From: an uncultured virus (IMG/VR IMGVR_UViG_3300044568_006268)
Lineage: Duplodnaviria; Heunggongvirae; Uroviricota; Caudoviricetes
Virus record (IMG/VR): IMGVR_UViG_3300044568_006268
Coordinates: 62,001-126,000 of that record
Direction: 5' to 3' (one strand)
DNA: 64,000 bases
Position numbers and translations under genes: made by a program. Shown here in pieces: positions 8,328 to 43,030 of this stretch. A model generated the notes under the pieces. The model did not search any database, had not been told where the DNA came from, and worked only from the letters and a program-made list of their open reading frames with translations. Positions within the stretch are counted from its first letter, which is position 1; each line of letters begins with the position of its first letter.

Positions 8328-8336
8328 ATTATATTG

Positions 8337-8410: not shown

Positions 8411-8420
8411 ATTGTAATAG

Positions 8421-8494
8421 CAGTCCTAACGGAATTCGAATCCGCAATCTCTTCCGTGACAGGGAAGCGTCATACGCCAATATGCTGTAGGACT
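8421..8494 (-). tRNA. tRNA-Asp(GTC)
   Basis: CTTCC-CTGTCAC-GGAAG. Confidence 0.85.
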
Positions 8495-8581
8495 ATATAA
8501 AAATTATTTAGTTTAAGCTCCTTTAAACCATGTAATTTCAGGGAGCTATTTGAGCTTATGCATGGAACTAAATAATAATTG

Positions 8582-8655
8582 CCGAGATGACGGGACTCGA
8601 ACCCGTGACCTTCGCCGTGACAGGGCGACATTGTAACCAACTCTACTACACCTCG
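8582..8655 (-). tRNA. tRNA-Asp(GTC)
   Basis: TCGCC-CTGTCAC-GGCGA. Confidence 0.9.
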
Positions 8656-8710
8656 ATTTCTAATTTCACGCTCACACTATGCAGTTCTATAAATTAGTAA
8701 CAGTCTCATC

Positions 8711-8788
8711 TGGGCTCTCCTGACTGGATTCGAACCAGTAACCCTCACCTTAACAGGGTGTCGCTCTAACCGTTGGAGCTACAGGAGA
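8711..8788 (-). tRNA. tRNA-Asn(GTT)
   Basis: CACC-CTGTTAA-GGTG. Confidence 0.9.
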
Positions 8789-8873
8789 ATATTTGATGTT
8801 TTAATTATAAGACAAATATAAACAATGTCATTGACATATGAAAATATTTAATCAAATAGTTATTAACAATTTG

Positions 8874-8945
8874 TGGAGCTACCGGGATTCGAACCCGGAA
8901 TAACAGAGTGCAAGTCTATCGTGATGCCAATTTCACTATAGCCCC
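8874..8945 (-). tRNA. tRNA-Ala(TGC)
   Basis: loop CT-TGC-AC, G3:U70. Confidence 0.9.
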
Positions 8946-8955
8946 ATTAAATTTG

Positions 8956-9030
8956 TAGGAGATGACGGAATCGAACCGACGACCTTTTGCGTGTAAAACA
9001 AACGCTCTAAACCAACTGAGCTAATCTCCT
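8956..9030 (-). tRNA. tRNA-Val(TAC)
   Basis: TTTGT-TTTACAC-GCAAA. Confidence 0.9.
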
Positions 9031-9036
9031 AAATTG

Positions 9037-9110
9037 TAGGTAATATGAGACTCGAACTCATAACCTCCTCGGTATCAGCGAGGTGCTCTAACCAATTGAG
9101 CTAACTACCT
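9037..9110 (-). tRNA. tRNA-Ile(GAT)
   Basis: CCTCG-CTGATAC-CGAGG. Confidence 0.9.
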
Positions 9111-9117
9111 GTGGCAG

Positions 9118-9188
9118 CACGAATGGAAGGATTCGAACCTTCATCGACGGTTTTGGAGACCGGCATGCTACCATTGCACCACACTCGT
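9118..9188 (-). tRNA. tRNA-Trp(CCA)
   Basis: CGGT-CTCCAAA-ACCG. Confidence 0.9.
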
Positions 9189-9195
9189 ATTTTAG

Positions 9196-9268
9196 TGGTA
9201 AGGGACGGGATCGAACCGTCATCATCGGATTTTCAGTCCGCTGCATAGACCAACTTTGCTACCTCACC
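9196..9268 (-). tRNA. tRNA-Phe(GAA)
   Basis: CGGA-CTGAAAA-TCCG. Confidence 0.9.
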
Positions 9269-10104: not shown

Positions 10105-11421
10105 TTAACCTTCAGCTTCTTCGGTATCAATTACTCCAGAATCTTTTACGATTCCTTCAAGTACTTTGAATTCGAAAGACTTGAATTTGAATGTTTTGTT
10201 TACCAAACCACCTTCAATTCTTACACAAACTCCTTCTTTGATATGTCTAGTATCTAAGATAGATGGACCAGTTCCGAATGTTTCGACGGTGTTGCTGAAA
10301 TATTCTCGCAAATCTCTATCATCGAATTTATGAGTGATTGCTTCTAATTCGTTTAAGGTTATCGTAGCAACATGTGGTACAGTTTTTACACCTAATTCAT
10401 TACAACGTTTTACAACATCATTCCAAGCATAATCGATAGATTGACCATCTTCATTAGCAAATGTCATACGGTAAACATAAACCTCAGATTGAGTAGGTTC
10501 ACAACCATAAGAATAAGCCATAGACTTACCGTATTGTTTCGTAAACTCTTTATCACCCATTTTGGTTGTATCAACAGATGGCATAATTGCAGCTCCTGTA
10601 GATTCGTAACCTACAATTTCAAAATAAACGGTTTCACCTTTTCTTAAGTTACCTTTGAATAAGTTCATTGCTTTATCTCGGATGGTTGGGTCATGGAATT
10701 GATTTGCGGATTTTGATTCTCCTAAAACAACTCTACGAGTACCATTCAAATAAGCCCATTCTTTGTCGTTGATAGCTAATCCAAATTTAGTAACAAGTTT
10801 TTCTAACCAACCTAATTCTCTAGTCATTTGAACGTGACCAATACGACCTGAAGTACCGTGAAGTTTTTCAGTAATAATGATGTGTTGACCCTTTTCAAAT
10901 TCGTGGATACTCTTACCAAAGTGTCCGGTATCAAAATGTTCTTTGAACATTACAGAAGATCTAGAAACTCGGGTTTTCTTACCTTGATTTTCTCTAGCAA
11001 TTTTAGCCGTATTTGGATTTACATATTTGTTACAGATAGGTACACCTTTCCATTCGTCAAATTCAAATCCTTCTACATCTAAACCAGTTACCATAATGAA
11101 TCCAAAGTAATGTAATGGAACCCAGAAACCATCAGAGATTTCACCTCTAAATTTTTGAGCTCTTACTCTTCGGTTTGCATCGAACATTCCACCTTTCTCA
11201 TCTTTTCTAGCATTTAACTCGGCATCACGATAAAGGTTGTTTGCTTTACAGAACTCATCGGATAACTGACCATCAGATGGAAAGTAAACTCCTAAATGTC
11301 CTTCTAAAGAATCTAAACCAATTACTACTTGATTACCGTGACAAGTTGCTAATTGAACTTTGTCTGCGTTAGGATGTGGTCTCACGTTTGTCAACCTAGT
11401 GACGATTGCATTGTATGCCAT
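10105..11421 (-). CDS. RNA ligase, DRB0094/Rnl2-like, with N-terminal tRNA-binding OB fold
   Basis: HPNADK N-domain; TEKLHGTS motif I; EGVCVR motif IV; FKFKS motif V. Confidence 0.85.
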   Translation of the reverse strand: MAYNAIVTRLTNVRPHPNADKVQLATCHGNQVVIGLDSLEGHLGVYFPSDGQLSDEFCKANNLYRDAELNARKDEKGGMFDANRRVRAQKFRGEISDGFWVPLHYFGFIMVTGLDVEGFEFDEWKGVPICNKYVNPNTAKIARENQGKKTRVSRSSVMFKEHFDTGHFGKSIHEFEKGQHIIITEKLHGTSGRIGHVQMTRELGWLEKLVTKFGLAINDKEWAYLNGTRRVVLGESKSANQFHDPTIRDKAMNLFKGNLRKGETVYFEIVGYESTGAAIMPSVDTTKMGDKEFTKQYGKSMAYSYGCEPTQSEVYVYRMTFANEDGQSIDYAWNDVVKRCNELGVKTVPHVATITLNELEAITHKFDDRDLREYFSNTVETFGTGPSILDTRHIKEGVCVRIEGGLVNKTFKFKSFEFKVLEGIVKDSGVIDTEEAEG

Positions 11422-16939: not shown

Positions 16940-17410
16940 TTAGGCAAGCATATGAAGATTAGTTCTCAAAGCTCCAATAGCAGCATCAAAGGTTTCAAAT
17001 ACCGGTATTCCTGCTCGTGAGCAAATAATATCTACATTACCTTTTCGCCAAAATCCGGTAGGACAACAGACAATTACACGTTGATGAATTGCAGCACATA
17101 CACCTAATTCCATTAATGTGATAGGACTTTTTGTGTCTGGTAAGATATTAAAGAATGCAATATCCGATTCAGTTAATTGAGTCAATTCCCAATTTACTTG
17201 ATGATTGAATTCTGGATTACTTTCCTTTTGTTCCCATGAAGAATCCCAATCATCTCTTCGAGGATTTAAGAAAGTAACATCTTCGTCTTTAAAGATTTCA
17301 GTGATTGCAGTTTGCCAATCTTCGGCAACTCCCATTTCAATGGAACCAGCTAAAAATACGCTGGTTCCATCTATGATTTGGTCTGATGAATTTGGTTTAA
17401 TTACTTGCAT
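16940..17410 (-). CDS. nucleoside 2-deoxyribosyltransferase-like protein
   Basis: VFLAGSI, NPRR, QVNWEL, SPITLMELG. Confidence 0.85.
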   Translation of the reverse strand: MQVIKPNSSDQIIDGTSVFLAGSIEMGVAEDWQTAITEIFKDEDVTFLNPRRDDWDSSWEQKESNPEFNHQVNWELTQLTESDIAFFNILPDTKSPITLMELGVCAAIHQRVIVCCPTGFWRKGNVDIICSRAGIPVFETFDAAIGALRTNLHMLA

Positions 17411-18932
17411 TAGACAATTCCATTACTTTAGCTCGGATAGCTGTTAATGTTGTTCGATTATAGAATTTTCCATTTTCATAAATCGTTTGTAAGATACCCA
17501 TATCTTCTTCAGTGTCGTTACATTGAGTTTGAACTACATAAGTTCCATCAACTTCAACAACTGCACATTTACCCTTTAATGACTTTTTAGTACCATCATC
17601 GGTAATTGGATCTTTAAAGATATCGTAACCTACTCCATTTGCCTCAAACCAAGCACCTTTTGCAGCATAACCGAAAGTATCACGAGTTGTAAATTGATAT
17701 GTGAATGAACCTACACCTAATACAATATTCGTTGAAGCAAATCCTTTAGCTTCTAATCTTTCGTAGATTTGGATTTGTCTTTCTAGATTAATTGAGTCTC
17801 CGTAGATAGCACCAATATGTGGATCTAGAACTTTATAACCTTGTTCGTTGATTGTACCACCAAAGATATCCCAAAGTAATTCAATAACACCTTTAAATTC
17901 TGGCACATAAACATCTTCATCAATTTCTTCGGCAGTTAAAAGTTTATCACCTGATTGGTACATTCCTCTTCCGCAAATAATATCTACCGGATCACCTGAA
18001 TCAGGACGAATAACCAATTTACCGTCACGTGACATGATTTGCTCTTTGTTTGCAGGCAAATACTCAGTAATCAATTTCCATAAGTCGAATGTGTCAGCCA
18101 CAATAGAAAGTATTCCTTTATCAAATTCAGTTAACCAATCAGAAATCATTTGTTGTTCACCTACCGTAAAGATTTTAGTAGTTGATACTGAGTGCTCAGA
18201 AGCATTTACTGAATTGATACAAACTTCGTTTTCTGGTTCGTCATAAAAATAACGAGCACCTGGAATAACTATGATTGAGTCAGATCCTCGGAATGAGAAT
18301 GCATGACCTAATCCAGAAGATAAACTATCCCATGGAGAAAGTCCTCTGGCAGAAAAATCATGACATAAGAAGTCGATTAACCAAGCATTTGCAGGATCAG
18401 TTTTCATTACCCATTTAACAAGGTTTCTACGGTATTGTAATGCATAAGTTGCAGATGTAGCTGGTTTCCAAGCTAAAGAAGAGATAATAGTTTCTAAGTA
18501 CAATGTCAACCAAGCAAAACCTTTAACAGTATTGATGAATGTCATATGAGGTACATTAGGATCAGTTTCAATTCCTTCTGGAAGAGCTTTGATACGAATA
18601 GGTAAGTAACCTAAATCATGGAGTGATTCAAAGTGCGAAGCATCGTAAGGCATACCTAAATATTGAGACATATCCACTCCAAATTGAGTAGCTGTTTCTT
18701 TTGGCATGTCGAAGAAATTTTCTTGCCATTCTGCATGCAACCAACTTACCGTTAATTGATGTCCAACCGAAAGAATTTTATTAACACCTTTTGGTGCATG
18801 TTTTAAACTTCTAGGAATCCAAGTTCCATATAAGAAATCTGTACCAGGAGCAAGCATCCTTTTATGGCCGACTTTGTAACCATCAGAATAAAAAGGAGCA
18901 GGTGCTCGAAATGTTTTTTGTAGTTTTAACAT
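17397..18932 (-). CDS. nicotinamide phosphoribosyltransferase-like (NAMPT/Namat)
   Basis: DGYKVGH, HDFSARG, ASEHSV, IRPDSGDP, IYGDSI, KDP.TD.GTKKS.KG. Confidence 0.92.
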   Translation of the reverse strand: MLKLQKTFRAPAPFYSDGYKVGHKRMLAPGTDFLYGTWIPRSLKHAPKGVNKILSVGHQLTVSWLHAEWQENFFDMPKETATQFGVDMSQYLGMPYDASHFESLHDLGYLPIRIKALPEGIETDPNVPHMTFINTVKGFAWLTLYLETIISSLAWKPATSATYALQYRRNLVKWVMKTDPANAWLIDFLCHDFSARGLSPWDSLSSGLGHAFSFRGSDSIIVIPGARYFYDEPENEVCINSVNASEHSVSTTKIFTVGEQQMISDWLTEFDKGILSIVADTFDLWKLITEYLPANKEQIMSRDGKLVIRPDSGDPVDIICGRGMYQSGDKLLTAEEIDEDVYVPEFKGVIELLWDIFGGTINEQGYKVLDPHIGAIYGDSINLERQIQIYERLEAKGFASTNIVLGVGSFTYQFTTRDTFGYAAKGAWFEANGVGYDIFKDPITDDGTKKSLKGKCAVVEVDGTYVVQTQCNDTEEDMGILQTIYENGKFYNRTTLTAIRAKVMELSNASN

Positions 18933-20219: not shown

Positions 20220-21140
20220 TTAAAAAATTGATTGAACTTTAAGTTTGTGCATTTCGTTGTCGTTTGCAAGTGAGAATCCTGCATTGTCTGTTGCATGAAT
20301 AGAATCGGTAGTATAGATTCCATCAAATGTTTCGTTTAAAGGTTTAAGTCCAGCAGAAAATAATCCATGAGTTACTACTAAGAAAATTTTATCATTGAAT
20401 TTATCTTTTGGTCTTTGTAAGCGAATAGCTTTTGCAAGTTCAGTAAAAGTTCTACCACCATCGCAAATATCATCAAGAATAAAGTAAGCTTTGCTATCAG
20501 CATCTTCACCTAGATTAGGCACTTCCGTATGAGTGATTTTACCTGTGGTTATATCTCTATGTTTAGATGCAATTAAGATGTCTTTATTAAAACCTAAAGC
20601 TTCGGCAGCATGATAAACTTTCTTTAGAGCACCTGCATCCGGAGAAACTAACTCAACGTTAGTATAATCACTTTTAGGTAATTTGATTACATTAGCAAAA
20701 TAATCTACTATTGCAAATTGAACAACACCTACATTTGTGAACTTTTCAAAGTTATCTAAACAAGCTTCTAACACATCTGAATGTGGATCTACTACGGTAA
20801 CTTTGTTAAATTTTTGTAGATTGATTATCGGACATACTACATTTTTAAGGTAGTTTACGCTATTTTCTTCGAATCGTCTATCTGACCTAGCTCCTAAAAA
20901 GTAAGGAACGTAAAGTTCAACATGTTCTGAACCTAATTGTCTTAATGTTTGATTAGCCGCAATAATAAGTTCTAAGTCTCTAAATGAATTGAATCGAGAC
21001 TTGATTACTACTCGTTGTAAGGTTTTTTTGAATGCATATCCTTTATTTTCTAAAGTAATCGATTGTTGTCCATCAGGGAATCGAGAGATTTTGAATTGGA
21101 TTTCTGATTTATCAGGGTGTGCTAAATTAAGTACTTTCAT
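20220..21140 (-). CDS. ribose-phosphate pyrophosphokinase-like (Prs/Adps)
   Basis: FPDGQ, PYF.GARSDR, DPHS, SPDAGA, DDICDGGRTF, VTHG. Confidence 0.92.
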   Translation of the reverse strand: MKVLNLAHPDKSEIQFKISRFPDGQQSITLENKGYAFKKTLQRVVIKSRFNSFRDLELIIAANQTLRQLGSEHVELYVPYFLGARSDRRFEENSVNYLKNVVCPIINLQKFNKVTVVDPHSDVLEACLDNFEKFTNVGVVQFAIVDYFANVIKLPKSDYTNVELVSPDAGALKKVYHAAEALGFNKDILIASKHRDITTGKITHTEVPNLGEDADSKAYFILDDICDGGRTFTELAKAIRLQRPKDKFNDKIFLVVTHGLFSAGLKPLNETFDGIYTTDSIHATDNAGFSLANDNEMHKLKVQSIF

Positions 21141-29032: not shown

Positions 29033-29283
29033 GATATTGTATGATAGTCTTGTTCTCTCGGATCTCTAAAATCTCCTTGATTTAGCTTAACAACAAATCC
29101 TCTAGATTCTAATTCTCTCTTCGTCAAGTTATCTAATGAAATAAAAACATTAGCCGACATTTTATTTTCTCTAACTGCAGCTTCAATAAGAGTTTGACAT
29201 TTTTGCAATTGAAGTTTTACCTTTTCTCCTAATACTGCGGTTGCTTTTGTTCTGCACATTTGTGCTGTAAAATTACTGTCCAT
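29026..29283 (-). CDS. hypothetical protein
   Basis: 85 aa ORF. Confidence 0.6.
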   Translation of the reverse strand: MDSNFTAQMCRTKATAVLGEKVKLQLQKCQTLIEAAVRENKMSANVFISLDNLTKRELESRGFVVKLNQGDFRDPREQDYHTISW

Positions 29284-30026
29284 TATTTTGCGTGTTTAAA
29301 TGTTGGGTTTAACCAAAGTCCATTAGCAAATATTAATGCTAATAAACCCGGAATTTGATTTTGGTCGATAGAAGTTAACAACTTAATAGTTGCAACGGTA
29401 TCGTGTTTCATCATTTTGAAAAGTTCTTCTCGGATTCTTTCTCCACTAACAGTAGTTCTTAATTTCTCAAGAATTTCTTCTTGTTCCATAGCTTGAAAAA
29501 TTGTGTGATGAATAAGAAATCCTTTAGTGATAGAAAATCTAATAGCTCTTAAGATTCTTAATGGATCGTCCATCATAGTTATCTTAGCATCTAGTGGAGT
29601 TCTTAAGATTTTCATTTCTAAATCTTCTTGACCGTTGAATAAATCGATAATGTTACCATCTACATCTTCAGCCATTGCATTTAGTGTAAAATCTCTTCGC
29701 ATAAGGTCATCTTCAAGAGTACCTAATTCTAGAATAGGTCTTCTAGTTCCTTCCATGTAACCAATTTCTTTTCTGGCCATTACAAAATCAGCATCTAACT
29801 TAGCGAACTTATGATCGGTTGGAAATTTAGCTCGGATAGTAAACATTTCCGGAACAGAAAGAAAGATAGTAAATCCTTGATCAGTCATCCATTTTTCCAT
29901 TTCAGCAAATCCACTTTCTACTGTTTGGTCTAAATTATCGAGTACAAAAGTAAAATCGATATCCTTAGAATTGATTCCTAGGAATGCGTCTCTTACGCAA
30001 CCTCCTACTTTGAATATCTTTGGCAT
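29283..30026 (-). CDS. cca: CCA-adding enzyme / tRNA nucleotidyltransferase
   Basis: VGGCVRD, DID, RRDFTLNAMA, DDPLRILRAIRF, ERI.EEL. Confidence 0.9.
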   Translation of the reverse strand: MPKIFKVGGCVRDAFLGINSKDIDFTFVLDNLDQTVESGFAEMEKWMTDQGFTIFLSVPEMFTIRAKFPTDHKFAKLDADFVMARKEIGYMEGTRRPILELGTLEDDLMRRDFTLNAMAEDVDGNIIDLFNGQEDLEMKILRTPLDAKITMMDDPLRILRAIRFSITKGFLIHHTIFQAMEQEEILEKLRTTVSGERIREELFKMMKHDTVATIKLLTSIDQNQIPGLLALIFANGLWLNPTFKHAK

Positions 30027-32896: not shown

Positions 32897-33259
32897 TTAT
32901 GTTATAGGATCTTCAGAAGGAGGAGTTTCTTCGATAGGAGTTTCTTCGATAGGAGTTTCTTCGATAGGAGTTTCTTCGATAGGAGTTTCTTCGATAGGAG
33001 TTTCTTCTATGATTGCTCGAGTTAAATTCAATTGAGCTATCACATAATCTTCGAGTACTGAATCATCCGTACCCCATTGCAAAACTATTTCATGAGGAAT
33101 TATCATAGATCCTTCGAAGGTTTTATCATCACCTATTAATTTCCAAAATACTTCAACAGTATCTGGAAAAAGAGGAAATGAATTAACTGTTACCTCTAGT
33201 GAATCTATATTCCACCCTAAAGGATATGTGAAAGTAGAAATTGGTTGAATATTTGCCAT
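32897..33259 (-). CDS. fibre-associated protein with EETPI repeats
   Basis: ORF; WG.DD motif; repeat tail. Confidence 0.7.
   Translation of the reverse strand: MANIQPISTFTYPLGWNIDSLEVTVNSFPLFPDTVEVFWKLIGDDKTFEGSMIIPHEIVLQWGTDDSVLEDYVIAQLNLTRAIIEETPIEETPIEETPIEETPIEETPIEETPPSEDPIT
32920..33008. repeat. 15-bp tandem repeat GGAGTTTCTTCGATA, about 6 copies
   Basis: Direct reading. Confidence 0.9.
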
Positions 33260-33261
33260 CG

Positions 33262-33708
33262 TTATTTATAGAATATGTTTATGTTTAAATCGTTTAATGC
33301 TACTGCAACTGTATCGGTGTCAGCTATTCCAGTAGTTGTAGATATTGCAATTCCAGTAGAAAAATTAATACCTGCTGGATATGATACGTTTGCTCCTGAT
33401 AAAGGTGGAATAACTACCGAAAAATAAACCGATGCTCCGGCTGTAGGTGTACCCGCATTATTATGAAAGGCAACTTTTCTAGCAGAACCATTGTTATTAT
33501 AGATGTACCATCCAGTTACTTTCCCGGCACTAGATTTTATATTTGTTAGATTAGTTGAGGCAGCAGAAACTAGGTGAAATGCCGTAGCTCCACCAGTAGC
33601 AACCTCTTGTAAGGAAACATTTACCGTTGATTGATCTGGAGCTATAACAACCGGAGAAGAATTCGCTGAAGCCGTTGGTCCATTTGGATTATTAGGATTG
33701 TATGCCAT
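33262..33708 (-). CDS. putative structural protein
   Basis: Beta-rich, within the fibre cluster. Confidence 0.65.
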   Translation of the reverse strand: MAYNPNNPNGPTASANSSPVVIAPDQSTVNVSLQEVATGGATAFHLVSAASTNLTNIKSSAGKVTGWYIYNNNGSARKVAFHNNAGTPTAGASVYFSVVIPPLSGANVSYPAGINFSTGIAISTTTGIADTDTVAVALNDLNINIFYK

Positions 33709-33721
33709 TTTATTTTTTATT

Positions 33722-34879
33722 TTATATTACCCACCAGTTTGCGTTATCTGAAACTAAAGTAATTGATTCATATATTTTGTTTATTACTGCAGTAAGTCCA
33801 TCATCTATCGTTTGAGTAGAAAATGCATCAACAGTAATTGGTGGAGTACCATCTATTTTTTTAATTACTAATGTTGAAGTATTATCAATTGCAGTAGGTA
33901 GATTAACTTGAAAAGCTCCTCCAGAAGTATTACATTTTAAAATAAAGGTTCCTGCAGTTGCACTTATATTATATGTAGTAGATGCAGAATCAATTACATA
34001 ACCGCTAACACCTCCTGTTCCAGCAGGACCGGTAGCACCTTGAGGACCAGTAGCACCAACTGGACCGGTTATACCAATTCCGGTAGCTCCATTAAGACCA
34101 TCGTTTCCAGTAGGTCCAGTAGGTCCATTAAGGCCAGTAGGTCCAGTTTGACCTACTCCAGTAGCACCAGTAATTCCGATAAGACCAGTAGCACCGATAG
34201 GACCTTGAAGTCCAGTAGCACCAGTTTGTCCATTATTACCAGTAGGACCTTGAAGTCCAGTAGCACCAGTAGGACCTTGAAGTCCAGTAGCACCAGTAGG
34301 ACCTTGAAGTCCAGTAGCACCAGTTTGTCCATTATTACCGGTAGAACCTTGAATTCCAGTAGAACCAGTTTGTCCATCGTTTCCAGTAGGACCTATTCCA
34401 CCAGTCATTCCAATAGCTCCAGTTTGTCCATCATTTCCGGTAGCACCTTGAAGGCCATTGTTTCCGGTAGGACCAGTAGCTCCGGCTACACCAGGATTTC
34501 CTGTAGCACCAGTAGCTCCAATTTGACCATCATTTCCTGTAGCACCAGTAAGACCGATTTGACCATCATTTCCAGTAGGACCGGTAGGTCCAGTTACACC
34601 TGCACCGGTTGGACCGATTTGTCCATTATTTCCAGTAGGACCGGTAGGTCCTTGAATTCCAGTAGCTCCGGTTTCACCAGCACCAGTAGAACCAGTAGCA
34701 CCTTTATTTCCGTCTACCCCTGTAGGACCGGTAGCTCCTGTTTGACCTCTACTTGCTTGTAAAGTTATAGGATTACCGAGTCCATCATAATAATTTCCGT
34801 TTCCGTCTGTTTGTAAAAGATTACCAAAAGAGTTTGATACGAACTGATTGGTTAAATCAAAATCTTGATTTTGTGGCAT
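33722..34879 (-). CDS. collagen-like fibre protein
   Basis: Long G-X-T/G-X-Y tract; C-terminal LP.A...IKK.D domain. Confidence 0.9.
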
Positions 34880-34881
34880 TG

Positions 34882-35418
34882 TTATCTAATATTAGAAATT
34901 CTAACTCCAACTTTTGGTGCGGTCTCAACCGATTCCGTAACCTTAACCGTTACTTTCTTAGAGCTAGTAGCTACAAAAGTATCTTCCCAAGGATTAAATA
35001 CCATGTCATCAGCTATAACTTCAAGTTTTATTTTTCCTATCTCATTTTCTAACAGAAAATTCATTTTACGTAAAGGTATTTCACAATGTCCTTTATCGTC
35101 AATAGTACCTTCAAACATATAAGTCATATCCTTACTTTCAATAATAACTCTAGCCTTACTATTTGCTGGATTAGCTCCTGATATTTCCATATCACAAATA
35201 AACGTTTCAGTTTTATCTCTAAATACTTTATATCCGGTAACAGGTTCTTCAACTATAGGTGTGATAGATTCCTGTATTTTTTGAGGTTCTCTGATTGGTG
35301 GAGTATTGATTTCCGGCTTTTCATCGATAACAACCGTTTCTAATACAGGTTCGTTTTCAATGGATTCGGTAGATCTTTCTTTAGCTAATTTAGCCATGAA
35401 TGTTTCGAAACTTTCCAT
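34882..35418 (-). CDS. putative virion protein
   Basis: 178 aa ORF. Confidence 0.65.
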
Positions 35419-35436
35419 TTAGTGTGTTGCTTTTTG

Positions 35437-35805
35437 TTATATATCCTTCCTACTAATGTGAGTAAGTTTTACTTGCGGTTTAAGGACTTCTTCAATAGTT
35501 CGATCTATTTCAGTCAAAGTCATTACGCATTCAGGATTTCTTTCTTTTAATTGATGAGATGTAATACCATTAACTCTACATATAAGATTGACGAATTTCT
35601 TATATTCTTTACCGGTTAAGGCTTGCTTTACTATTTCCTGTGGCGGCAAATAAACATGCTTAGCTGCCGGATTTGTTAAATTTGCATTTACTCCTCCTAA
35701 TGCATCACGAACTTTTATCGTAATTGCTACATCATCCCATGTATAATATGCACCTATCCATTCCTCATTCAAATTAGACCATTTGAAATATATCTTTTCG
35801 TCCAT
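35437..35805 (-). CDS. hypothetical protein
   Basis: 122 aa ORF. Confidence 0.65.
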   Translation of the reverse strand: MDEKIYFKWSNLNEEWIGAYYTWDDVAITIKVRDALGGVNANLTNPAAKHVYLPPQEIVKQALTGKEYKKFVNLICRVNGITSHQLKERNPECVMTLTEIDRTIEEVLKPQVKLTHISRKDI

Positions 35806-35835
35806 TTCTATTATATGTTAATAACTTCAAAAAGA

Positions 35836-36309
35836 TTATTTAGGAGTATCGTATTTTTCGAGAATAGATGTCATCTTTTTTAGTATAGGCTTTTGATTTA
35901 CAGGCACTATAGTTTTCTTAATTTGTACAATAGGTTCAGGTTCTCGAACGCTTCTCAAAACTCGAATAGTATCGTAAGGATTGTCTCTTTCTATTTCGTT
36001 AACTTCGGGTCTTCGTACTAAAGTTCTTTCGACTAGAGTTTGAGGTTTAAGTGAGAGCATACTATCTAAAAGGCGTTTTACTTCTAAAATATCTTTTGTC
36101 TTTTTATTGCTATCATCCATTATTTGATTATTCAATTTTAGTTGATTAGCATAAGTAACCATCATTGAATCATATTGAGTAGATATTGATAAACAATCGT
36201 CAGTTTTAAAATACGAAGTACCTATAGCAGTCATCGAACTAAAGATAACTGCTATGATAAATGCCCATATTCTTTGTTTTGGTGTTAGTGATTTTATAAC
36301 TTCAAACAT
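35836..36309 (-). CDS. membrane-anchored coiled-coil protein (spanin-like candidate)
   Basis: N-terminal TM, next to an endolysin. Confidence 0.5.
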   Translation of the reverse strand: MFEVIKSLTPKQRIWAFIIAVIFSSMTAIGTSYFKTDDCLSISTQYDSMMVTYANQLKLNNQIMDDSNKKTKDILEVKRLLDSMLSLKPQTLVERTLVRRPEVNEIERDNPYDTIRVLRSVREPEPIVQIKKTIVPVNQKPILKKMTSILEKYDTPK

Positions 36310-36317
36310 AATTAAAA

Positions 36318-36935
36318 TTATTTGTATGGCGCATATTTAGGTAGGCCCTTAACTCTAACGCAACGTAGAATTTGTTTTCTTTGTTTGCCAGTGGATTCGT
36401 AACTCACATGAACCCAATTTGGATTTATATCATTACCATATTCCCATATAAGCTGGTCAAATTCTAAATTATCTTTAATAAAATCAAAGACCATTTTATT
36501 AGTAATTCCTGTACCTGCAGAATCTTGGTCTAAATCTAAAGCTTCACCAGTACTGTGTTGTGAAGTTAAAGATGCTCCTGGTGTAGCAGCATTTAGGGCT
36601 TTGCTTCTATATCCCGAAGATATTAAAATAGGTTTACCAAAATGTAAACGAATAGGTTCAAAAACCTTTTCGGCTATTAATTTCAAATTAGCCAAATGTT
36701 CAGGAGATGGGGTATTGTCTATTCCAAGGCGTTTTGCTTCACCGGAATTAGTTACTTCGCTAAGCGAAAGGTGTGCACTTAATTTCATAGGATATATTAT
36801 TTTTCTGTCTTCTAATTCTTCCGTTATGATTCGATTCATCATAATTTGAGCATCATCAGGTTTAACACCGGCACGAATTAACATCGATAGTATCTTCATG
36901 CCAAATTCCATTTGGTCATCTGATAATCTTGACAT
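36318..36935 (-). CDS. peptidase M15A endolysin
   Basis: SSGYR, SQH..G.A.D, WVHVS. Confidence 0.88.
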   Translation of the reverse strand: MSRLSDDQMEFGMKILSMLIRAGVKPDDAQIMMNRIITEELEDRKIIYPMKLSAHLSLSEVTNSGEAKRLGIDNTPSPEHLANLKLIAEKVFEPIRLHFGKPILISSGYRSKALNAATPGASLTSQHSTGEALDLDQDSAGTGITNKMVFDFIKDNLEFDQLIWEYGNDINPNWVHVSYESTGKQRKQILRCVRVKGLPKYAPYK

Positions 36936-36941
36936 CGCTAT

Positions 36942-37517
36942 TTAGCTATTTTTATTCTCGGATGCATATTTTACACCCATAATCGTACCTACGATAGAGA
37001 ATGCGTTTGTGAGTAGAATACCAAACATATTAGACCAAGTCGAACCTATGATTTGAGTGTCTTTACCAGTAAACATTGCAACACTGTACATAATCGTTGT
37101 TATTATTCCAACGCTCATAATTACAACTAAAGCTACTTTGACGATTGTTCCAATTAATTCAGTTTGTGATTTTTTCTGAATAATATCTAAGTCGTTTAAA
37201 GCTGCGTCTTTTGCTACTAATGCCTCAGTTTTAGAATTCTCTGCTTCTTGAAGAGCAATCTTAAGGTCTTCGTTTATACGTATGTTTTCTTCCTCGGATG
37301 CTAATAATTCTCGATTTCTTTCTTGTACTTGTTTAGTAACTTCTAATCGTTTCCTTCTAGCATCTTTGTCCTTTTCTAAAGCCGTTGAAAGATAATCTGA
37401 AAATTCTTTATCACCTTCTTCGGGCTCTATAACTTTAAGTAAGTTACCTTCAATAGCAACTCGTTTAGTCTTTTGAATTTCAAGTAAAAAATCTCGGATT
37501 ACTTTATTTACTTTCAT
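36942..37517 (-). CDS. coiled-coil plus 2-TM membrane protein (holin-like candidate)
   Basis: Coiled coil, then two TM helices; overlaps the receiver gene stop. Confidence 0.65.
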   Translation of the reverse strand: MKVNKVIRDFLLEIQKTKRVAIEGNLLKVIEPEEGDKEFSDYLSTALEKDKDARRKRLEVTKQVQERNRELLASEEENIRINEDLKIALQEAENSKTEALVAKDAALNDLDIIQKKSQTELIGTIVKVALVVIMSVGIITTIMYSVAMFTGKDTQIIGSTWSNMFGILLTNAFSIVGTIMGVKYASENKNS

Positions 37518-37948
37518 TATTTATAAACTTTGAACGGCGCAGTTCTATTTTTATAACCTTCAAAATCTTTTTTAAATTCCTCTAGTCTAGGTTCGATGTC
37601 GTCAGATTTGATTATCCAGAATTGAGCTCCAGATTTAACGGCTTTTGCTTGTTCTTCTGGCTCATTAGATGATGAGATGATTCCAATAACCACGTTATTA
37701 CCATACTCAAAGTTTATCTTACGAATAAGCTCGATACCATCATACGAAGAACCTATGATATTAAGATCTACGAAAACACATTCAGGTTTTCCTTCAGGAT
37801 CTTTTTGCCAACCTGAAAATAGTTTAGCAGCTTCGTCTGAGCTATCTATAGACTCAAGAGAAAGTGAAATATCTAAAAGACTGCAAGCGTCTTCGAAAAC
37901 TAAGTGAAAAAGACTTTCGTCATCTACTAGTAAAATTGAATCAATCAT
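37517..37948 (-). CDS. single-domain response regulator (receiver)
   Basis: ILLVDDE, VFVDLN (phospho-Asp), DGIEL, ISSS, IIK. Confidence 0.92.
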   Translation of the reverse strand: MIDSILLVDDESLFHLVFEDACSLLDISLSLESIDSSDEAAKLFSGWQKDPEGKPECVFVDLNIIGSSYDGIELIRKINFEYGNNVVIGIISSSNEPEEQAKAVKSGAQFWIIKSDDIEPRLEEFKKDFEGYKNRTAPFKVYK

Positions 37949-37960
37949 TTTTGTTTTATG

Positions 37961-39886
37961 TTATTTTAATTTGATTTTCATTTGTGTGCCTATCTCTGGC
38001 AGTTTATTACATTTAATGGTAAAGCCATGTTCACTTAAAATTGCAATACATATATTAAGGCCTAATCCGGTTCCTGATTCTGCTTGTCCTTCTTTCCTTA
38101 CATACGGTTTAGATAGATAATCGAAATCTGCTTGACTTAATCCTCTACCGTTATCTTCAATAAAGAGAGTATCTTCAACTCGATAAATTTTAACAAATTT
38201 ACTATTACTGTCATTGTATTTCAATCCATTACGAATAAGATTATCAATTGATGTACAAAATAAGGCTTCATTAACATCCAATTCTCCTAAGTCTTCTAAA
38301 ATTACTTGAGGTCGATATGCAGTTGCAGAAAGATAATCCTCTAATATAAGCTTAAGATTGCAATTAACTCGATCAAGTACAACATCCTTCTTTACCAAAT
38401 TTGTAAATTCATAAACTCCTTTATAAACTTTTTGAGTGTGTCGCAGACCTTCTTTAATCATCTTAAGAGGTGCTTCAATCTTCAACTCTTTTATTTGTTC
38501 TTCCGTGAGTCTACGTTCTAACGAAGATAAACCTCGAGGCATATATGTGTTAATTCCACTATGCATATCATGTCGAAGAATTTTAGCAGCATGTTCAAGA
38601 TAAGTGTTTTTCTTTTCAATCTCTATCTGCTGATTATAGCTTTGAGTAACATCAGTAGCAATTTTCATTATTCGATAAGGTTTACCATCAATACCAATAA
38701 CCGGATTATAAGTTGCTTGTAGATAAATTAAATTTCCATCTTTTTTCTTTCTGATAATTTCTCCACTAAAGAATTTTCCTGTTCGTAGAGTTTCCCAAAA
38801 TTTTTGATATTCATTTGATTCGACAAATTCATCCTCTACGAATATGCTATGATGTTTACCTACGATTTCTTCGAATTTATCGTATCCCATAGTATTTAAG
38901 AAAAGTGAATTAGCAAATATTATATTACCTCCTAAGTCGAATTCAATAACCGCATTAGATTGATTAATTGCAGTCATTCTATTATGTATTTCGTTCTCTT
39001 TGTTTTTTAATTGAGTAACATCTTGTCGGATAGACATAAATCCTAATATGGTTCCGTCATCGTCGAAATTGCACTTTATAAAAGTATCTACATAATACAA
39101 TGAGCCATTTTTTGCTCGGTTTGTACAGATAGCATTCCAAATTTTCTTTTCTTTGACTACTGTCCTATACATATCAGACCAAAATTCCTTAGGATGTTCA
39201 CCTGAATTTACAACATTATGGTCAAGGCCTATCACTTCATCTATCGTATATCCAGAAATATCACAAAACTTTTGATTTACATATGTTATCTTTCCTTTAG
39301 AATCAGCCATTGAAATGATTGCTGATGTATCGAGAAATTTTTCTAGTTCTATCATTTGACTCGATAACTTTTTAGATTCTTTAACAGAATAAGCAAATGA
39401 ATACAGAGACGAAAGTATTTGAGCAAAATGAATTTCCTCAGTTTTCCATATTCTAGGGGATAGACTTTCAATACAAATAACCCCAATCAACGATCCACTA
39501 TACCAAATTGGTACATCTAACATCGATTTAACACCCAGAGGTTTTAGATAACCTTCAAGAAAACACGATGTGGCAGGATGATTTTCTGCATCATTAGCAA
39601 CAATGATTGGATTTTCTTCCAGTGATAAAAAATATGATTCGAAATCTTTTTTATGTAAAATAATATCTTGATAAAAGGCATCTTCTAATTTTATATAAAG
39701 TTGTTGAAGGATGATAGAATCTCGGTCCTCGTTAAACAACCATATAGATGTTCGATCAGCTGAAACACTATCTACAACTTCCTTAACCACCAATTTAGCT
39801 CCTTCCATAATATTACCTTTATAAAATAATTCATTTGAAGATTGATGTACTAATACCTCAGTTAAAATTTCTGAGTATGATTTCAT
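37961..39886 (-). CDS. GAF-PAS-PAS sensor histidine kinase
   Basis: GAF (LDVPI..G..IGVICIE), two PAS/PAC, H-box LRHDM, N-box NLIRNGLKY, DNGRG, GTGLGL. Confidence 0.93.
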   Translation of the reverse strand: MKSYSEILTEVLVHQSSNELFYKGNIMEGAKLVVKEVVDSVSADRTSIWLFNEDRDSIILQQLYIKLEDAFYQDIILHKKDFESYFLSLEENPIIVANDAENHPATSCFLEGYLKPLGVKSMLDVPIWYSGSLIGVICIESLSPRIWKTEEIHFAQILSSLYSFAYSVKESKKLSSQMIELEKFLDTSAIISMADSKGKITYVNQKFCDISGYTIDEVIGLDHNVVNSGEHPKEFWSDMYRTVVKEKKIWNAICTNRAKNGSLYYVDTFIKCNFDDDGTILGFMSIRQDVTQLKNKENEIHNRMTAINQSNAVIEFDLGGNIIFANSLFLNTMGYDKFEEIVGKHHSIFVEDEFVESNEYQKFWETLRTGKFFSGEIIRKKKDGNLIYLQATYNPVIGIDGKPYRIMKIATDVTQSYNQQIEIEKKNTYLEHAAKILRHDMHSGINTYMPRGLSSLERRLTEEQIKELKIEAPLKMIKEGLRHTQKVYKGVYEFTNLVKKDVVLDRVNCNLKLILEDYLSATAYRPQVILEDLGELDVNEALFCTSIDNLIRNGLKYNDSNSKFVKIYRVEDTLFIEDNGRGLSQADFDYLSKPYVRKEGQAESGTGLGLNICIAILSEHGFTIKCNKLPEIGTQMKIKLK

Positions 39887-39898
39887 ATTTTGATATTT

Positions 39899-40711
39899 TT
39901 ATTTTAGTAGGGAGTAATATTCCTTGAAATGTTTTAGCCTATCAGCTAATCCTATGGTACCACCGTTTACTCTTTTAGTTACTGCAGTAACTGTTGCATC
40001 GTCCGCTCCTTTGTCGCATATGGACCATAGTTTATTTGAATCAAAAAAGAATGCTGCAGAAGCTAATGGATATTTAGTCGCAACTAAATCTGGAGTAGCA
40101 ATACAATCTTCACCGATAAATTTAGTAAAGTTAGTGTAGTTAGATTTTCCTGTTAATTGAATGAAACCTCTTCCTCTGAATTTGAATCCTTCACGAGAAG
40201 CCTCATCACCATTACCCATTCTAGATGCATAAACTCTAGAAGCAATTTTCTCTGGTTGTCTTGCATATAAATCAGACATATTTCCAGGAAAGTACTTTCC
40301 AAATATTTTCTTCAAACCATCTGCCGAGTAATTTACATTTTCAGTAACTGCCTTAAATCCACCTGACTCATGGCCACATTGAGCTAAGAAATGAGCTAAT
40401 CTTAATGGAGTAGTGATGTTGAATTTTTTGGCAGTATCAGGAATTTGAGCAATAACTGAATCTGGTACGTGACCTTTTAATTTGTCTAATTTAAAAGGAG
40501 ATGTAGGAATTGGTGTAGACGATGTAGTAATTGCTTGGATTTTACTCCAAGTAGCATCACCAACAAATCCATCTGCAGTTAATCCATTCTTAGATTGAAA
40601 GTCTTTAACCGCCTTTTCTGTGCCTGGACCGAAGTCACCATCAGCACTCAAACCCAAAGCTTTTTGTAAAGCTATTACGTCTGGACTAGTAGAACCTATT
40701 TTAAGTAGCAT
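39899..40711 (-). CDS. PG-binding plus GH19 (chitinase-like) endolysin
   Basis: ADGDFG..T..AV..FQ; HFLAQ..HESG; RGRG.IQLTG..NY; VNGG..GL.DR. Confidence 0.92.
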   Translation of the reverse strand: MLLKIGSTSPDVIALQKALGLSADGDFGPGTEKAVKDFQSKNGLTADGFVGDATWSKIQAITTSSTPIPTSPFKLDKLKGHVPDSVIAQIPDTAKKFNITTPLRLAHFLAQCGHESGGFKAVTENVNYSADGLKKIFGKYFPGNMSDLYARQPEKIASRVYASRMGNGDEASREGFKFRGRGFIQLTGKSNYTNFTKFIGEDCIATPDLVATKYPLASAAFFFDSNKLWSICDKGADDATVTAVTKRVNGGTIGLADRLKHFKEYYSLLK

Positions 40712-40896
40712 AGATAAATTTATTTTAAATATCTATCTCTTATAGGCAATAAAATCTATTTATACATTAGATTAAATGTCTTTGGTTGGGTCCTTGGCTC
40801 GGCTGGGCTTTGCCTCGGAATAAACTTCTTCAATTTCCTCGAATCCAAGTAATCGTTATATGCATCTTGGATACGGAGAGTTTCGAAATTGAAAAT

Positions 40897-41244
40897 TTAT
40901 TTTAGAAAAATTTGTATTGCCAGAATGACAAACGAAAGAAAAACGCAAAGACCATTTTTGAAGTCTAGGCCTTGTTTGAGGATGAGGAGAGTAAGAATAA
41001 AGAAGATGATTGTTCCAGTGATTGTAGGAATAATTCTCGAAGGCCATATCTGCGAATCAAATCCTTCGTATAAATGACCTACTCCTAGAATGAATAAGTA
41101 AGAAACCGTAGTTCCAAAAACTATTGATATGAGAAGACGATAATCGTTGACTTCAGGCCAGATGAATTGTGAATTAGTTTGAAACCAAATTAAGACTTGG
41201 CCTATTGCACAATATAAAATTCCTATAAGGATATGTTTATTCAT
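40897..41244 (-). CDS. 4-TM membrane protein (SMR/DMT-like)
   Basis: Four hydrophobic helices in 115 aa. Confidence 0.65.
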   Translation of the reverse strand: MNKHILIGILYCAIGQVLIWFQTNSQFIWPEVNDYRLLISIVFGTTVSYLFILGVGHLYEGFDSQIWPSRIIPTITGTIIFFILTLLILKQGLDFKNGLCVFLSFVILAIQIFLK

Positions 41245-41359
41245 CGTTTTCTAAAAGTTTCAATTATAGAGACGATTTCTCCCAATACCACGATTATAAA
41301 TATTGCTATGCAAATAGATACTCCTTGATGATTTTCTATTGAGGTTAATATTTCTTCCA

Positions 41360-41584
41360 TTATTCAGGATTTATGATTTCTACTATTTTCCATCTATCAG
41401 TTTTCTGACAGATTACAATTTGTTTTTGTGCTAAAATTTTACCTAACCAAATTGATTTTTCTTCGTTAGCTAGATAAGTCTTAACTTCTTCTAGAGTTTT
41501 GAATGTCTTATGGGTTTTTAATAACACGGTAAGACCTGAACTATAAGAATCATAAGCGTATAATTTGAATTTAGTTTCTTCCAT
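41360..41584 (-). CDS. hypothetical protein
   Basis: 74 aa ORF. Confidence 0.55.
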   Translation of the reverse strand: MEETKFKLYAYDSYSSGLTVLLKTHKTFKTLEEVKTYLANEEKSIWLGKILAQKQIVICQKTDRWKIVEIINPE

Positions 41585-42285
41585 TACAATTGTTGAGCTT
41601 TACGTTTGATTTCATCTTTTGTTGCTTCTAATTTCTTCAACGATTTTTTGATTTTTTCTAATGCAAAATCATTTGAAATTTCTTTCATCCAAAGTTTATG
41701 AGTTTCTTTGGCCTCTTTCGTGGATTCTTCTAGGAATGAATAAACATTAAGACCCCAATGAGGCGTGAACTTAACGAATTCCATTTTAAACATTGCCGTT
41801 TTGTAAAGACCAAATCTATTTGCATAACGAGGATTTCTTCGAGAATTATAATTTTTATATCGTTGTATTATGATTGATGGTGATTTATTTTCGTAATTTT
41901 CGAGTTCATTTACATATCGTTCTATGAGCTCGTGGGCTAATGAAAAATCTACATACACATCTTTTATTTGTGCATAGATAGGAGATTGTTTATCTTCTGG
42001 TGCTATATAACCAAGCAACATATTAGGTCCACCATCCCAACCATTGTTAGGCTCGAAATTAGAAGAGTATTTATTAAGAATGGTTCGGTCACCCTTTTTG
42101 ATGTGACATTCCTCATTTTCCATTTCTTTACCAACACTAATAATAAATTCTTTAAGCGTACTTTCGTAGAAATTTACATTTTCTTTATGAAGACGATATC
42201 TTTCAGTTTCAATTTCTTGAGCTTTCTTAATTGCCTCAAGTTTTTTGATTCGTCGTTTATCTCGGATGAATTGAAATATACCCAT
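41584..42285 (-). CDS. hypothetical protein
   Basis: 233 aa ORF. Confidence 0.7.
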   Translation of the reverse strand: MGIFQFIRDKRRIKKLEAIKKAQEIETERYRLHKENVNFYESTLKEFIISVGKEMENEECHIKKGDRTILNKYSSNFEPNNGWDGGPNMLLGYIAPEDKQSPIYAQIKDVYVDFSLAHELIERYVNELENYENKSPSIIIQRYKNYNSRRNPRYANRFGLYKTAMFKMEFVKFTPHWGLNVYSFLEESTKEAKETHKLWMKEISNDFALEKIKKSLKKLEATKDEIKRKAQQL

Positions 42286-42578
42286 TATTTTAAAGATTTA
42301 ACTTGTGATTCGATTTCGTTGTACATTGCTTCAACTAATTTGTTTGAACGTTTGTCGTAGTGAATACAAGTAGATGCATGAATTACTGTGGCATGATTAT
42401 CTCTTCCGTGTTGTTTAGCAATGGCAAGTAAATTAAGGCCGGTATTAAATCTTGAAAAGTACATTGACAAATGTCGTGCTTGAACTACGTTAGCTTTCCT
42501 TGAAGGAGAATTGATTTGACTGATTGAGATTCCAGTTACTTGCGAAACGATAGTTTGAATTTGTGGTACTGTTGACAT
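42285..42578 (-). CDS. stand-alone DnaA C-terminal (domain IV) HTH protein
   Basis: I...V.......I.SPSRK..VV.AR...MY.......L..IA...GRDNHATVIHA. Confidence 0.85.
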   Translation of the reverse strand: MSTVPQIQTIVSQVTGISISQINSPSRKANVVQARHLSMYFSRFNTGLNLLAIAKQHGRDNHATVIHASTCIHYDKRSNKLVEAMYNEIESQVKSLK

Positions 42579-42655
42579 AATGTATTTGTTTAAGAATTAT
42601 AAGTAAAACTAATCATTTTTTGCGACATAAAGAAATAAAAACTGTTAAATTAATG

Positions 42656-43030
42656 TTAAAGTTTTTCATAATGATGTTGAGCCCAATATGCAGGACCTCC
42701 ATAATAAGTACAGATTTCTTCACCAATTTCTATATCTCGAATAGCAAAAAAGGTTACGGCTTTATGGTCTCTAGGAAATTTCCAAGATGCATTATTTTTA
42801 TCTGCATGATTGTAGATGCAACCATATCCGAAAGGAATAATGTACTCAAAATCTCGACCGTTCGTAGGTAATATGAACCGATAATCTAAGAGCAAATCAC
42901 CATCCTTAGGAATAATCACATAATGGCATTCCTCAATAATTTCATCTTTAAGGATTTTTTCAGTAGCGAATACACCTAATCCTTTACCTTCGGTATGGTC
43001 GATTTTTATTTTTGTAGGAACTTTAAACAT
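42656..43030 (-). CDS. SET-domain protein
   Basis: GKGLGVFA, YNHA...NA, A.RDI..GEEI...YG. Confidence 0.9.
   Translation of the reverse strand: MFKVPTKIKIDHTEGKGLGVFATEKILKDEIIEECHYVIIPKDGDLLLDYRFILPTNGRDFEYIIPFGYGCIYNHADKNNASWKFPRDHKAVTFFAIRDIEIGEEICTYYGGPAYWAQHHYEKL

Follow-up and report, generated by a model that had tools for sequence, protein, structure and literature searches.

A phage-encoded kinase-receiver pair locked to a stalked two-transmembrane protein, with a proposed role in gating a lysis cassette

Lysis timing sets the burst size and fitness of a phage, and the timing controls known so far are the holin clock and a small number of superinfection-sensing antiholins. Class II holins and pinholins, e.g., S21 of phage 21, are membrane proteins with two transmembrane (TM) segments. 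In bacteria, the single-domain response regulators of the CheA-CheY-FliM and DivJ/PleC-DivK-DivL pathways act by protein contact, and LytS is a membrane sensor whose partner carries a DNA-binding LytTR output domain. Chemoreceptor stalks and the signalling helices of sensor kinases are long coiled coils whose lengths change in whole heptads. According to the excerpted text of three sources, lysis inhibition in phage T4 involves the holin T and the antiholin RI (PMC11413866), LytST acts on lrgAB mRNA levels and promoter activity and LrgAB-type proteins are linked to pyruvate transport (PMC6997555), and DivL and the response regulator DivK are named in the regulation of CckA (PMC9430884). The one receiver described in the excerpted part of a jumbo-phage survey is divergent and does not belong to a two-component system (PMC7824862), and our full-text literature search yielded no report of a phage kinase-receiver pair connected with lysis. 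Here we describe a kinase-receiver pair encoded in the lysis cassette of an uncultured member of the Caudoviricetes. The window, that is, the whole 64,000-nucleotide stretch of DNA analysed, comprises bases 62001-126000 of the 129,487-bp IMG/VR virus record IMGVR_UViG_3300044568_006268, and it encodes a soluble histidine kinase, a receiver-only response regulator and p191, a 191-aa protein with a stalk and two TM segments.

The genes of the kinase, the receiver and p191 (hereafter the triad) lie between those of the GH19 and M15 endolysins. The six open reading frames (ORFs) from the GH19 endolysin to p157, in the order that the original prediction had described, are all on the minus strand with gaps of no more than 12 nt (Table 1); the successive spacings are 12, 12, -1, 6 and 8 nt, where the -1 stands for a one-base overlap of the receiver stop codon with the p191 start codon (TAATG). 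Hydropathy analysis found no hydrophobic segment in the kinase, the receiver or either endolysin. Because neither endolysin has a signal or a TM segment, both are expected to need a membrane lesion for export. We propose, at a probability of roughly 0.58, that a phosphorelay through the kinase and the receiver mechanically gates the membrane hairpin of p191 in this cassette, a reading that is built on sequence comparison and structure prediction.

The conserved unit at this locus is the gene order kinase, receiver, p191. Searches of viral contigs gave 256 relatives of p191, whereas for the kinase the best 80 of 635 matches were kept, and the ORFs of these loci were annotated by phmmer and then with hidden Markov models built from clusters. 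In a first count of 97 loci unique by p191, the receiver was directly before p191 in 86 and separated from it by one small ORF in 7, and the kinase was two genes before p191 in 85. A wider count took in 171 unique p191 sequences from 239 loci on viral and metagenome contigs. The receiver is directly upstream of p191 in 154 of the 156 unique loci with at least 500 bp visible upstream, and of the 112 unique p191 loci with at least 2.5 kb visible upstream, 110 have a kinase. The catalytic residues stay invariant down to approximately 60% kinase identity and 52% p191 identity.

The kinase has the predicted layout GAF-PAS1-PAS2-DHp-CA and is cytoplasmic, with no TM segment by hydropathy. Its H-box with the presumed phospho-acceptor H439 is located approximately 110 residues before the N box, the motifs NGLKYN, DNGRG and GLGL are conserved in 54 sequences, and a kinase in the PDB (8f71_A) aligns with residues 424-634, while Pfam HisKA gave no match to the window kinase at E<=0.01. 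The receiver keeps D9, D10, D61 (the phospho-acceptor), S92/S93, W111 and K114 without exception across 53 relatives, and its mean column identity is 83% versus 61% for p191. The catalytic histidine, ATP boxes and phospho-aspartate, which the original prediction had called intact, are thus present and are invariant or conserved in 53-54 diverse relatives. The same prediction had the receiver without a DNA-binding output, and this also holds: Pfam finds PF00072 only, at residues 5-115, with no output or DNA-binding domain, and the conserved C-terminal 28 residues match no family. (The PF00072 profile search of the window's own record missed this receiver.) With a gap of 12 nt, kinase and receiver are encoded as a cognate pair. 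Judged by sequence, the pair has the features of a two-component system, the assignment of the DHp family apart, and would belong functionally with the single-domain-receiver pathways. The data support an intact pair that appears to be under strong purifying selection. One could regard the kinase and receiver as captured host genes carried as passengers without a role in the phage, given that the nearest cellular relatives of the kinase core are ordinary bacterial kinases (Saprospiraceae, Flavobacterium and others) at 22-37% identity. We consider this extremely improbable in view of the hundreds of viral copies with invariant catalytic residues, the coding tightly overlapped with p191, and the p191 clusters in the ESM Atlas, which are 100% viral and without a Pfam family.

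For p191, the presumed target of the pair, searches of Pfam and PHROG found no family at E<=0.01 and chance-level matches only at E<=1. Hydropathy places its TM segments at residues ~122-150 and 164-182. The AF2 model (predicted local distance difference test score 84, predicted template-modelling score 0.35) shows a single helix from residue 37 to 150 that includes TM1; in a Foldseek search against BFVD, this model had one significant match, an uncharacterised homologue. Alignment and model agree on the layout, in which a small N-domain is followed by a continuous helix, the short loop GKDTQIIGSTWSN and a second helix, TM2. The TM2 sequence MFGILLTNAFSIVGTIMGV is almost invariant and contains G177xxxG181. 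The presumed periplasmic loop has approximately 13 residues and the bulk of the protein would be cytoplasmic, with lysines on both presumed cytoplasmic sides of the hairpin; the topology is probably N-in/C-in.

The length of the stalk varies among relatives in a regular manner. We measured how many residues separate the N-domain motif TKQ[IV]Q from the loop motif G-S-T-W-S-N, both of which are present in 112 of the 171 unique sequences, and obtained values of 90 (n=1), 91 (n=4), 97 (n=41), 104 (n=15), 118 (n=3), 125 (n=13) and 132 (n=35). All lengths but 91 are equal modulo 7, which covers 108 of the 112 sequences. Because the lengths differ by exact heptads, the stalk is best described as a register-preserving coiled coil. 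Such heptad quantisation is what would be expected if the N-domain and the hairpin were mechanically coupled.

Natural domain swaps provide a view of the direction in which a signal may run. When 1.84 billion representative proteins were searched with a profile of the p191 alignment, 264 matched, and two kinds of fusion stand out among them. In the first, a sensor replaces the N-domain and is fused to the hairpin and part of the stalk, as in P0017 (GAF), P0050 (PAS-PAS), P0051 and P0035 (PAS). These sensors resemble those of the window kinase: its GAF domain is 60% identical to P0017 over 179 residues, PAS1 is 64% identical to P0035 over 116 residues, and PAS2 is 54% identical to P0051 over 122 residues. 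Beside the fused sensor-hairpin genes, a receiver, kinase core or N-domain was found in 0 of 80 loci. In the second kind, the N-domain and stalk are fused to HisKA-HATPase_c in place of the hairpin (P0108, P0132, P0138, P0141 and the fragment P0106), and F39, Y42, D50, R54, R57, Q65, N68 and L71 of the N-domain are invariant in both p191 and these kinase-fused forms. A search of viral contigs with P0108 found no copy, genome contigs gave kinase-core matches only, and in metagenomes a single locus, L178, was informative; the 79 others that were kept match P0108 only within its residues 1-133, which cover N-domain and stalk, and are included in the count of p191-family loci. L178, a contig of 1,058 bp, encodes a kinase C-terminus, a 143-aa receiver of the same family and then the N-domain-kinase protein (609-1058), which overlaps the receiver by 4 nt in the slot of p191 and whose HisKA part runs off the contig. 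This arrangement implies, as far as sequence can tell, a cascade from kinase to receiver to second kinase. Four other combinations, P0079 (FecCD), P0053 (GT2 with hairpin), P0022 (Rpb1_5) and P0085, are likely assembly or gene-call chimeras and were set aside.

Since the sensor-hairpin fusions lack receiver, kinase core and N-domain, the hairpin would be the output and the N-domain the input of p191, and by its distribution the N-domain appears to go with the receiver. We therefore propose that the N-domain is an input domain coupled to the receiver. A docking prediction for the receiver with residues 1-125 of p191 gave a median score of 0.31 against a mark of 0.32, in a run made without controls, a score that speaks for neither binding nor its absence. 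The assignment of hairpin as output and N-domain as input argues against p191 being an upstream sensor of membrane state with the kinase or receiver as its recipient; the true target of these would then have to be sought elsewhere, e.g., among host proteins. Gene order alone gives no direction, and a receiver more conserved than p191 would be compatible with several partners; however, in that case the sensor-hairpin proteins P0017, P0035, P0050 and P0051 would have no output, and in the kinase-fused form the N-domain takes the N-terminal input position of a kinase. The sensor role is thus very unlikely.

The link between the hairpin and lysis is seen most clearly in the fused genes. Among 80 loci of P0051 relatives (not deduplicated), 78 hold an endolysin, almost always abutting or overlapping the fused gene, and of the two loci without one, one ends 26 bp after the gene. 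The lysins are M15 only in 43 loci, GH19 only in 28, GH24 only in 2 and of two families in 5. A small 2-TM protein (74-104 aa) is beside the fused gene in 63 of the 80 loci, and a PF05105-type holin is found in 8. Matches of P0035 include 8 fused loci among 76, and all 8 have the same layout as the P0051 relatives. For the triad itself, 63 loci extend 5 kb or more upstream and 3 kb or more downstream, and 44 of them hold a GH19, M15 or GH24 gene, at a median lysin-p191 distance of 745 bp and with the lysin upstream or downstream on either strand. A Pfam scan of neighbours added a GH108 protein in two loci, bringing the count to 46 of 63. These neighbourhoods support the assignment of the membrane hairpin as a lysis-cassette component in related phages.

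Several observations weigh against a role in lysis or limit what the neighbourhoods can say. No recognised endolysin lies within approximately 5 kb in 17 of the 63 fully flanked loci, where the neighbours are metabolic, chaperone, nucleotide or baseplate genes; the neighbour Pfam scan covered 119 of the 152 clusters of the 19 loci then remaining, which limits this lysin-free count. On the question of whether relatives unlink the module from lysis genes, which the original prediction had named as a check, the linkage is therefore the rule but not universal. In both exceptions to the receiver-p191 order (L105 and L134), p191 stands beside an unrelated 427-aa protein with neither a receiver nor a lysin nearby, and L134 has a clamp-loader-like ATPase and a T4-type portal near p191. 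Synteny among related phages is not independent evidence. The window contains no homologue of the small 2-TM proteins of the relatives and no PF05105 holin, and p191 matches no described holin or antiholin family in Pfam or PHROG. The conservation of the hairpin, far above what is usual for holins, would also fit a conserved host target outside lysis, and PAS1 is of flavin/redox type by similarity only. Among the cultured phages of INPHARED, tblastn of p191 and the receiver found nothing, and the kinase gave PAS-level matches only. This last result bears on the claim in the original prediction that intact two-component pairs are rare in lytic phages: no cultured phage was found with the system, but at least 631 viral contigs encode a kinase relative (635 pattern matches). 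As for a lytic lifestyle, the record carries the flag 'provirus', and a search of its 129 kb for PF00589 matched no tyrosine integrase.

Taken together, the lysin-free loci, the placement of p191 among replication and structural genes in L105 and L134, and the invariant hairpin and loop would suit a relay that controls a membrane function other than lysis, for example superinfection exclusion, a change in host energy or transport, or a different takeover step, with the proximity to lysis genes reflecting shared ancestry or late expression. This explanation has more difficulty with the fused hairpin genes, which adjoin an endolysin gene in 78 of 80 loci and in all 8 of the further ones, and at which three endolysin families have been swapped with start and stop codons overlapping. 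The triad lysin, likewise, occurs upstream, downstream and on either strand, a pattern that selection for linkage accounts for more readily than frozen synteny does. We regard a function outside lysis as fairly unlikely and favour control of the lysis-cassette hairpin.

Whether p191 could itself make the hole is a separate question. As holins do, p191 has TM segments and is encoded beside an endolysin, and its two TM segments, probable N-in/C-in topology, short charged tail and invariant G177xxxG181 in TM2, next to endolysins without signals and with no other recognised holin in the window, would fit a holin or pinholin-like hole-former. The receiver would then license hole formation and the relay would serve as a lysis clock. 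Holins usually diverge fast, however, whereas the hairpin is nearly invariant and without a holin-family match, and the fused cassettes often hold PF05105 holins or small 2-TM proteins of their own; other holin candidates also occur in the triad locus L153. Since cassettes with the hairpin gene also contain such canonical candidates, the hairpin is probably not the only holin. The window has an alternative candidate in p115TM, which belongs to no Pfam or PHROG family and is separated from GH19 by 185 nt. Its look-alikes in the Atlas are viral, some with DMT_6 (14-35% of members), and p115TM, which precedes GH19 in the window, is found directly after p191 in seven relatives (L031, L034-L038 and L065); p115TM is an uncertain candidate for either the holin or a small DMT-like membrane protein of the cassette. 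A PF07230 search of the record gave no match and gave none in the control genomes either. Hole formation by p191 is accordingly unlikely, and its description as holin-like in the original prediction is not supported in that form. From sequence, p191 probably acts as a regulator and not as the sole holin, and a role as a regulator, trigger or antiholin is more likely than one as 'the holin'. An antiholin of the T4 type is not what we see, since p191 has no PHROG match to RI/RIII and no periplasmic holin-binding domain.

The preferred gating of the hairpin by phosphorelay can be described as a sequence of steps. The soluble kinase would read a cytoplasmic signal via GAF, PAS1 and PAS2 and autophosphorylate on H439, and the phosphoryl group would pass to D61 of the receiver. 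The phosphorylated receiver would dock on p191, a probable parallel dimer, at its N-domain, and the resulting change would travel down the register-preserving coiled-coil stalk to the 2-TM hairpin. By altering its packing in the inner membrane, the hairpin would either advance or delay the holin-dependent release of the two signal-less endolysins. Its part in this step could be that of a regulator, an antiholin or a depolarising trigger, and less likely that of the hole-former itself. Phosphorelay control of lysis, as originally predicted, thus has support for the intact pair locked to a 2-TM protein and for the lysis-cassette hairpin, and less for the holin role and the redox signal.

That signal had been given as the metabolic or redox state of the host. 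The tandem PAS1-PAS2 of the kinase matches PDB 3ewk ('Sensor protein', 1.9e-27), which we take to be MmoS, and PAS1 matches the PAS domain of the aerotaxis receptor (8dik, 3e-16) and a nitrogen fixation regulatory protein (2gj3, 1.6e-10), presumably NifL. The PAS domains of MmoS, Aer and NifL bind flavin. As written, the redox or metabolic signal goes beyond these similarities, which make a redox or energy signal for the kinase plausible. The input also varies among relatives, whose kinases occur with GAF, without GAF or as two genes in tandem. Tandem kinase genes are found upstream of one receiver and p191 in L011, L028, L030, L032, L033, L037, L039 and L042, and further in L071, L084, L092, L101, L104, L106 and L146, an arrangement that suggests two inputs converging on one receiver.

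Other variations concern the layout of the locus. In a marine subgroup (L137 (5501-5989), L139, L144, L145, L156 and L160), a 162-aa multi-TM protein of cluster c86, with no family, is inserted between the receiver and p191, and a neighbour of the triad in L028 (705-1256) matches the Tad6 Thoeris inhibitor family (PF25188, 2.5e-13). In L084 and L094, GH19 adjoins M15 and the triad comes after them. In the window, an 18-nt imperfect direct repeat (16 of 18 identical) is found at 36939-36956 and 39886-39903, exactly at both borders of the kinase-receiver-p191 block, with one copy over the coding end of p191 and the other over the GH19 stop and the spacer. The block may have moved within the cassette, although the repeat could also be due to chance; comparison of the repeat with the GH19-M15 junctions of L084 and L094 neither confirmed nor dismissed an insertion scar. 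At the far end of the cassette, p157 has no Pfam or PHROG family, has homologues only in the identical contigs L002, L003, L082 and L083, and is spanin-like in position only.

The record that contains the window has a CheckV completeness estimate of 52%, and an identical segment is present on the 294-kb viral contig L002. Almost all genes of the window are on the minus strand, the G+C content is approximately 31-39%, and the sequencing runs with near-identical DNA are lake-water DNA runs only. The GH19 gene has 68-70% DNA identity to endolysin or chitinase genes of Flavobacterium and Cellulophaga phages, from which we infer, as a reasonable reading of the sequence, a Bacteroidota host. The cassette is followed by p122, p178 and the collagen-like tail fibre, whose repeats give rise to a long antisense ORF (34040-34762) as a by-product. 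Promoter-like and terminator-like sites in 33000-43000 are about as frequent as in shuffled sequences (39 vs 42.0±7.1 and 5 vs 4.3±2.0, respectively). Elsewhere in the window, 35 tRNA genes are clustered at 1592-9268 on the minus strand, with duplicates for Met (4) and for Gln, Glu, Pro, Gly, Asn, Lys and Asp (2 each), and with a tRNA-like gene at 2044-2116 in which ARAGORN reads the four-base anticodon 'agcg'. The RNA ligase, nicotinamide phosphoribosyltransferase (NAMPT), PRPP synthetase and CCA-adding enzyme make up a set for NAD salvage and tRNA repair that is typical of large phages.

Table 1. Positions in the window of the cassette genes, their domains and neighbouring features.
Feature	Position	Strand	Remarks
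p115TM, 115 aa	40897-41244	-	4 TM by hydropathy; upstream of GH19
GH19 endolysin, 270 aa	39899-40711	-	PG_binding_1 2e-13; Glyco_hydro_19 4e-8; phrog_181 endolysin 7.5e-67
Histidine kinase, 641 aa	37961-39886	-	GAF 2e-12; two PAS; HATPase_c 5e-11
Kinase GAF, aa 31-163	39398-39796	-	PF01590 2e-12
Kinase PAS1, aa 189-292	39011-39322	-	PF13426; MmoS/Aer/NifL type
Kinase PAS2, aa 322-409	38660-38923	-	PF08447
Kinase H-box RHDMHSGINTY	38543-38575	-	presumed phospho-acceptor H439; invariant in 54 sequences
Kinase HATPase_c, aa 547-640	37967-38248	-	N/G1/G2 boxes; PF02518 5.2e-11, 43.4 bits, cut-off 26.4
Receiver-only response regulator, 143 aa	37517-37948	-	PF00072 35.3 bits, cut-off 30.2
p191, stalk/2-TM protein, 191 aa	36942-37517	-	no Pfam/PHROG family
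p191 N-domain, aa 1-75	37293-37517	-	conserved E23, G24, F39, Y42, D50, R54, R57, Q65, N68
p191 stalk, aa 76-121	37155-37292	-	within a single long helix
p191 membrane hairpin, aa 122-191 + stop	36942-37154	-	TM1, loop GKDTQIIGSTWSN, TM2 MFGILLTNAFSIVGTIMGV
M15 peptidase endolysin, 205 aa	36318-36935	-	Peptidase_M15_3 PF08291 7.5e-14; phrog_894 endolysin 2e-26
p157, 157 aa	35836-36309	-	one N-terminal TM (aa 13-34) by hydropathy
97-aa protein	42285-42578	-	DnaA C-terminal helix-turn-helix domain only; PF08299 1.2e-17; 1.6 kb upstream of cassette
Collagen-repeat tail-fibre protein, 385 aa	33722-34879	-	PF01391; phrog_6320; downstream of cassette
120-aa protein	32897-33259	-	C-terminal seven tandem 'PIEET'-type repeats; downstream of cassette
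RNA ligase	10105-11421	-	
Nicotinamide phosphoribosyltransferase (NAMPT)	17397-18932	-	
PRPP synthetase	20220-21140	-	
tRNA nucleotidyltransferase (CCA-adding)	29283-30026	-	

Placed in a wider frame, the three arrangements found among relatives would be three wirings of one modular system: a sensor fused to the hairpin; a sensor kinase acting through the receiver on N-domain, stalk and hairpin; and a sensor kinase acting through the receiver on an N-domain-kinase. It is possible, although we hold it at somewhat less than even odds, that uncultured large phages of lakes and seas, probably infecting Bacteroidota, time lysis with their own sensor-stalk-hairpin signalling in these three wirings. 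Should this be so, a phage lysis membrane protein would for the first time be under post-translational, phosphorylation-gated control, and the N-domain of p191 would be a new receiver-binding input domain, a partner of single-domain response regulators. The phage would then read the physiological state of the infected cell and decide the time of burst. Since the system is present in hundreds of environmental phage contigs, it could affect the virus-driven turnover of aquatic bacteria. The natural one-gene versions, in which a PAS or GAF domain is joined to the hairpin and a small TM protein and an endolysin are encoded next to it, constitute a minimal system for testing the idea, and the heptad-quantised stalk could be used to build lysis modules gated by a signal.

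Compared with described systems, the pair resembles the CheY and DivK pathways in its parts, with a histidine kinase, a receiver-only protein with canonical receiver residues, and an output presumed to be protein binding; the N-domain heading a second kinase recalls DivK acting on DivL/CckA. Unlike in those pathways, the components are phage-encoded and the likely target, p191, is a new, phage-only membrane protein without homology to FliM, CheZ or DivL. The p191 stalk resembles those of chemoreceptors and signalling helices in joining an input to an output by a heptad-quantised coiled coil, but the output here would be a C-terminal 2-TM hairpin of a new family rather than a kinase-control tip or a DHp domain. 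With class II holins such as S21, p191 shares two TM segments, a probable N-in/C-in topology, a small-xxx-small motif and a place beside endolysin genes, and it differs from them in an N-domain and stalk of approximately 120 cytoplasmic residues, the lack of a family match, extreme conservation and the coexisting holin candidates.

In theme, the closest cellular analogue is LytST-LrgAB. Like the LytSR/LytST-LrgAB/CidAB systems of Firmicutes, as the excerpted source describes them, the locus ties a two-component system to adjacent holin/antiholin-like membrane proteins (PMC6997555). The architecture is not that of LytSR-LrgAB, in that the phage kinase is soluble and without TM segments, the receiver has no DNA-binding domain and the coupling is presumably post-translational. 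In purpose, the closest phage analogue is T4 lysis inhibition, with no shared parts: in T4, and as proposed here, a large phage uses a signal to alter lysis time via a membrane lysis protein and not via transcription. In the excerpted account, T4 RI is a periplasmic antiholin that answers superinfection and binds the periplasmic domain of the holin, with no kinase, receiver or phosphorylation (PMC11413866), whereas the signal here would be cytoplasmic and p191, by its lack of family matches, has no sequence similarity to the T4 proteins. The system thus combines known kinds of process, two-component signalling and regulated lysis, with a new effector family.

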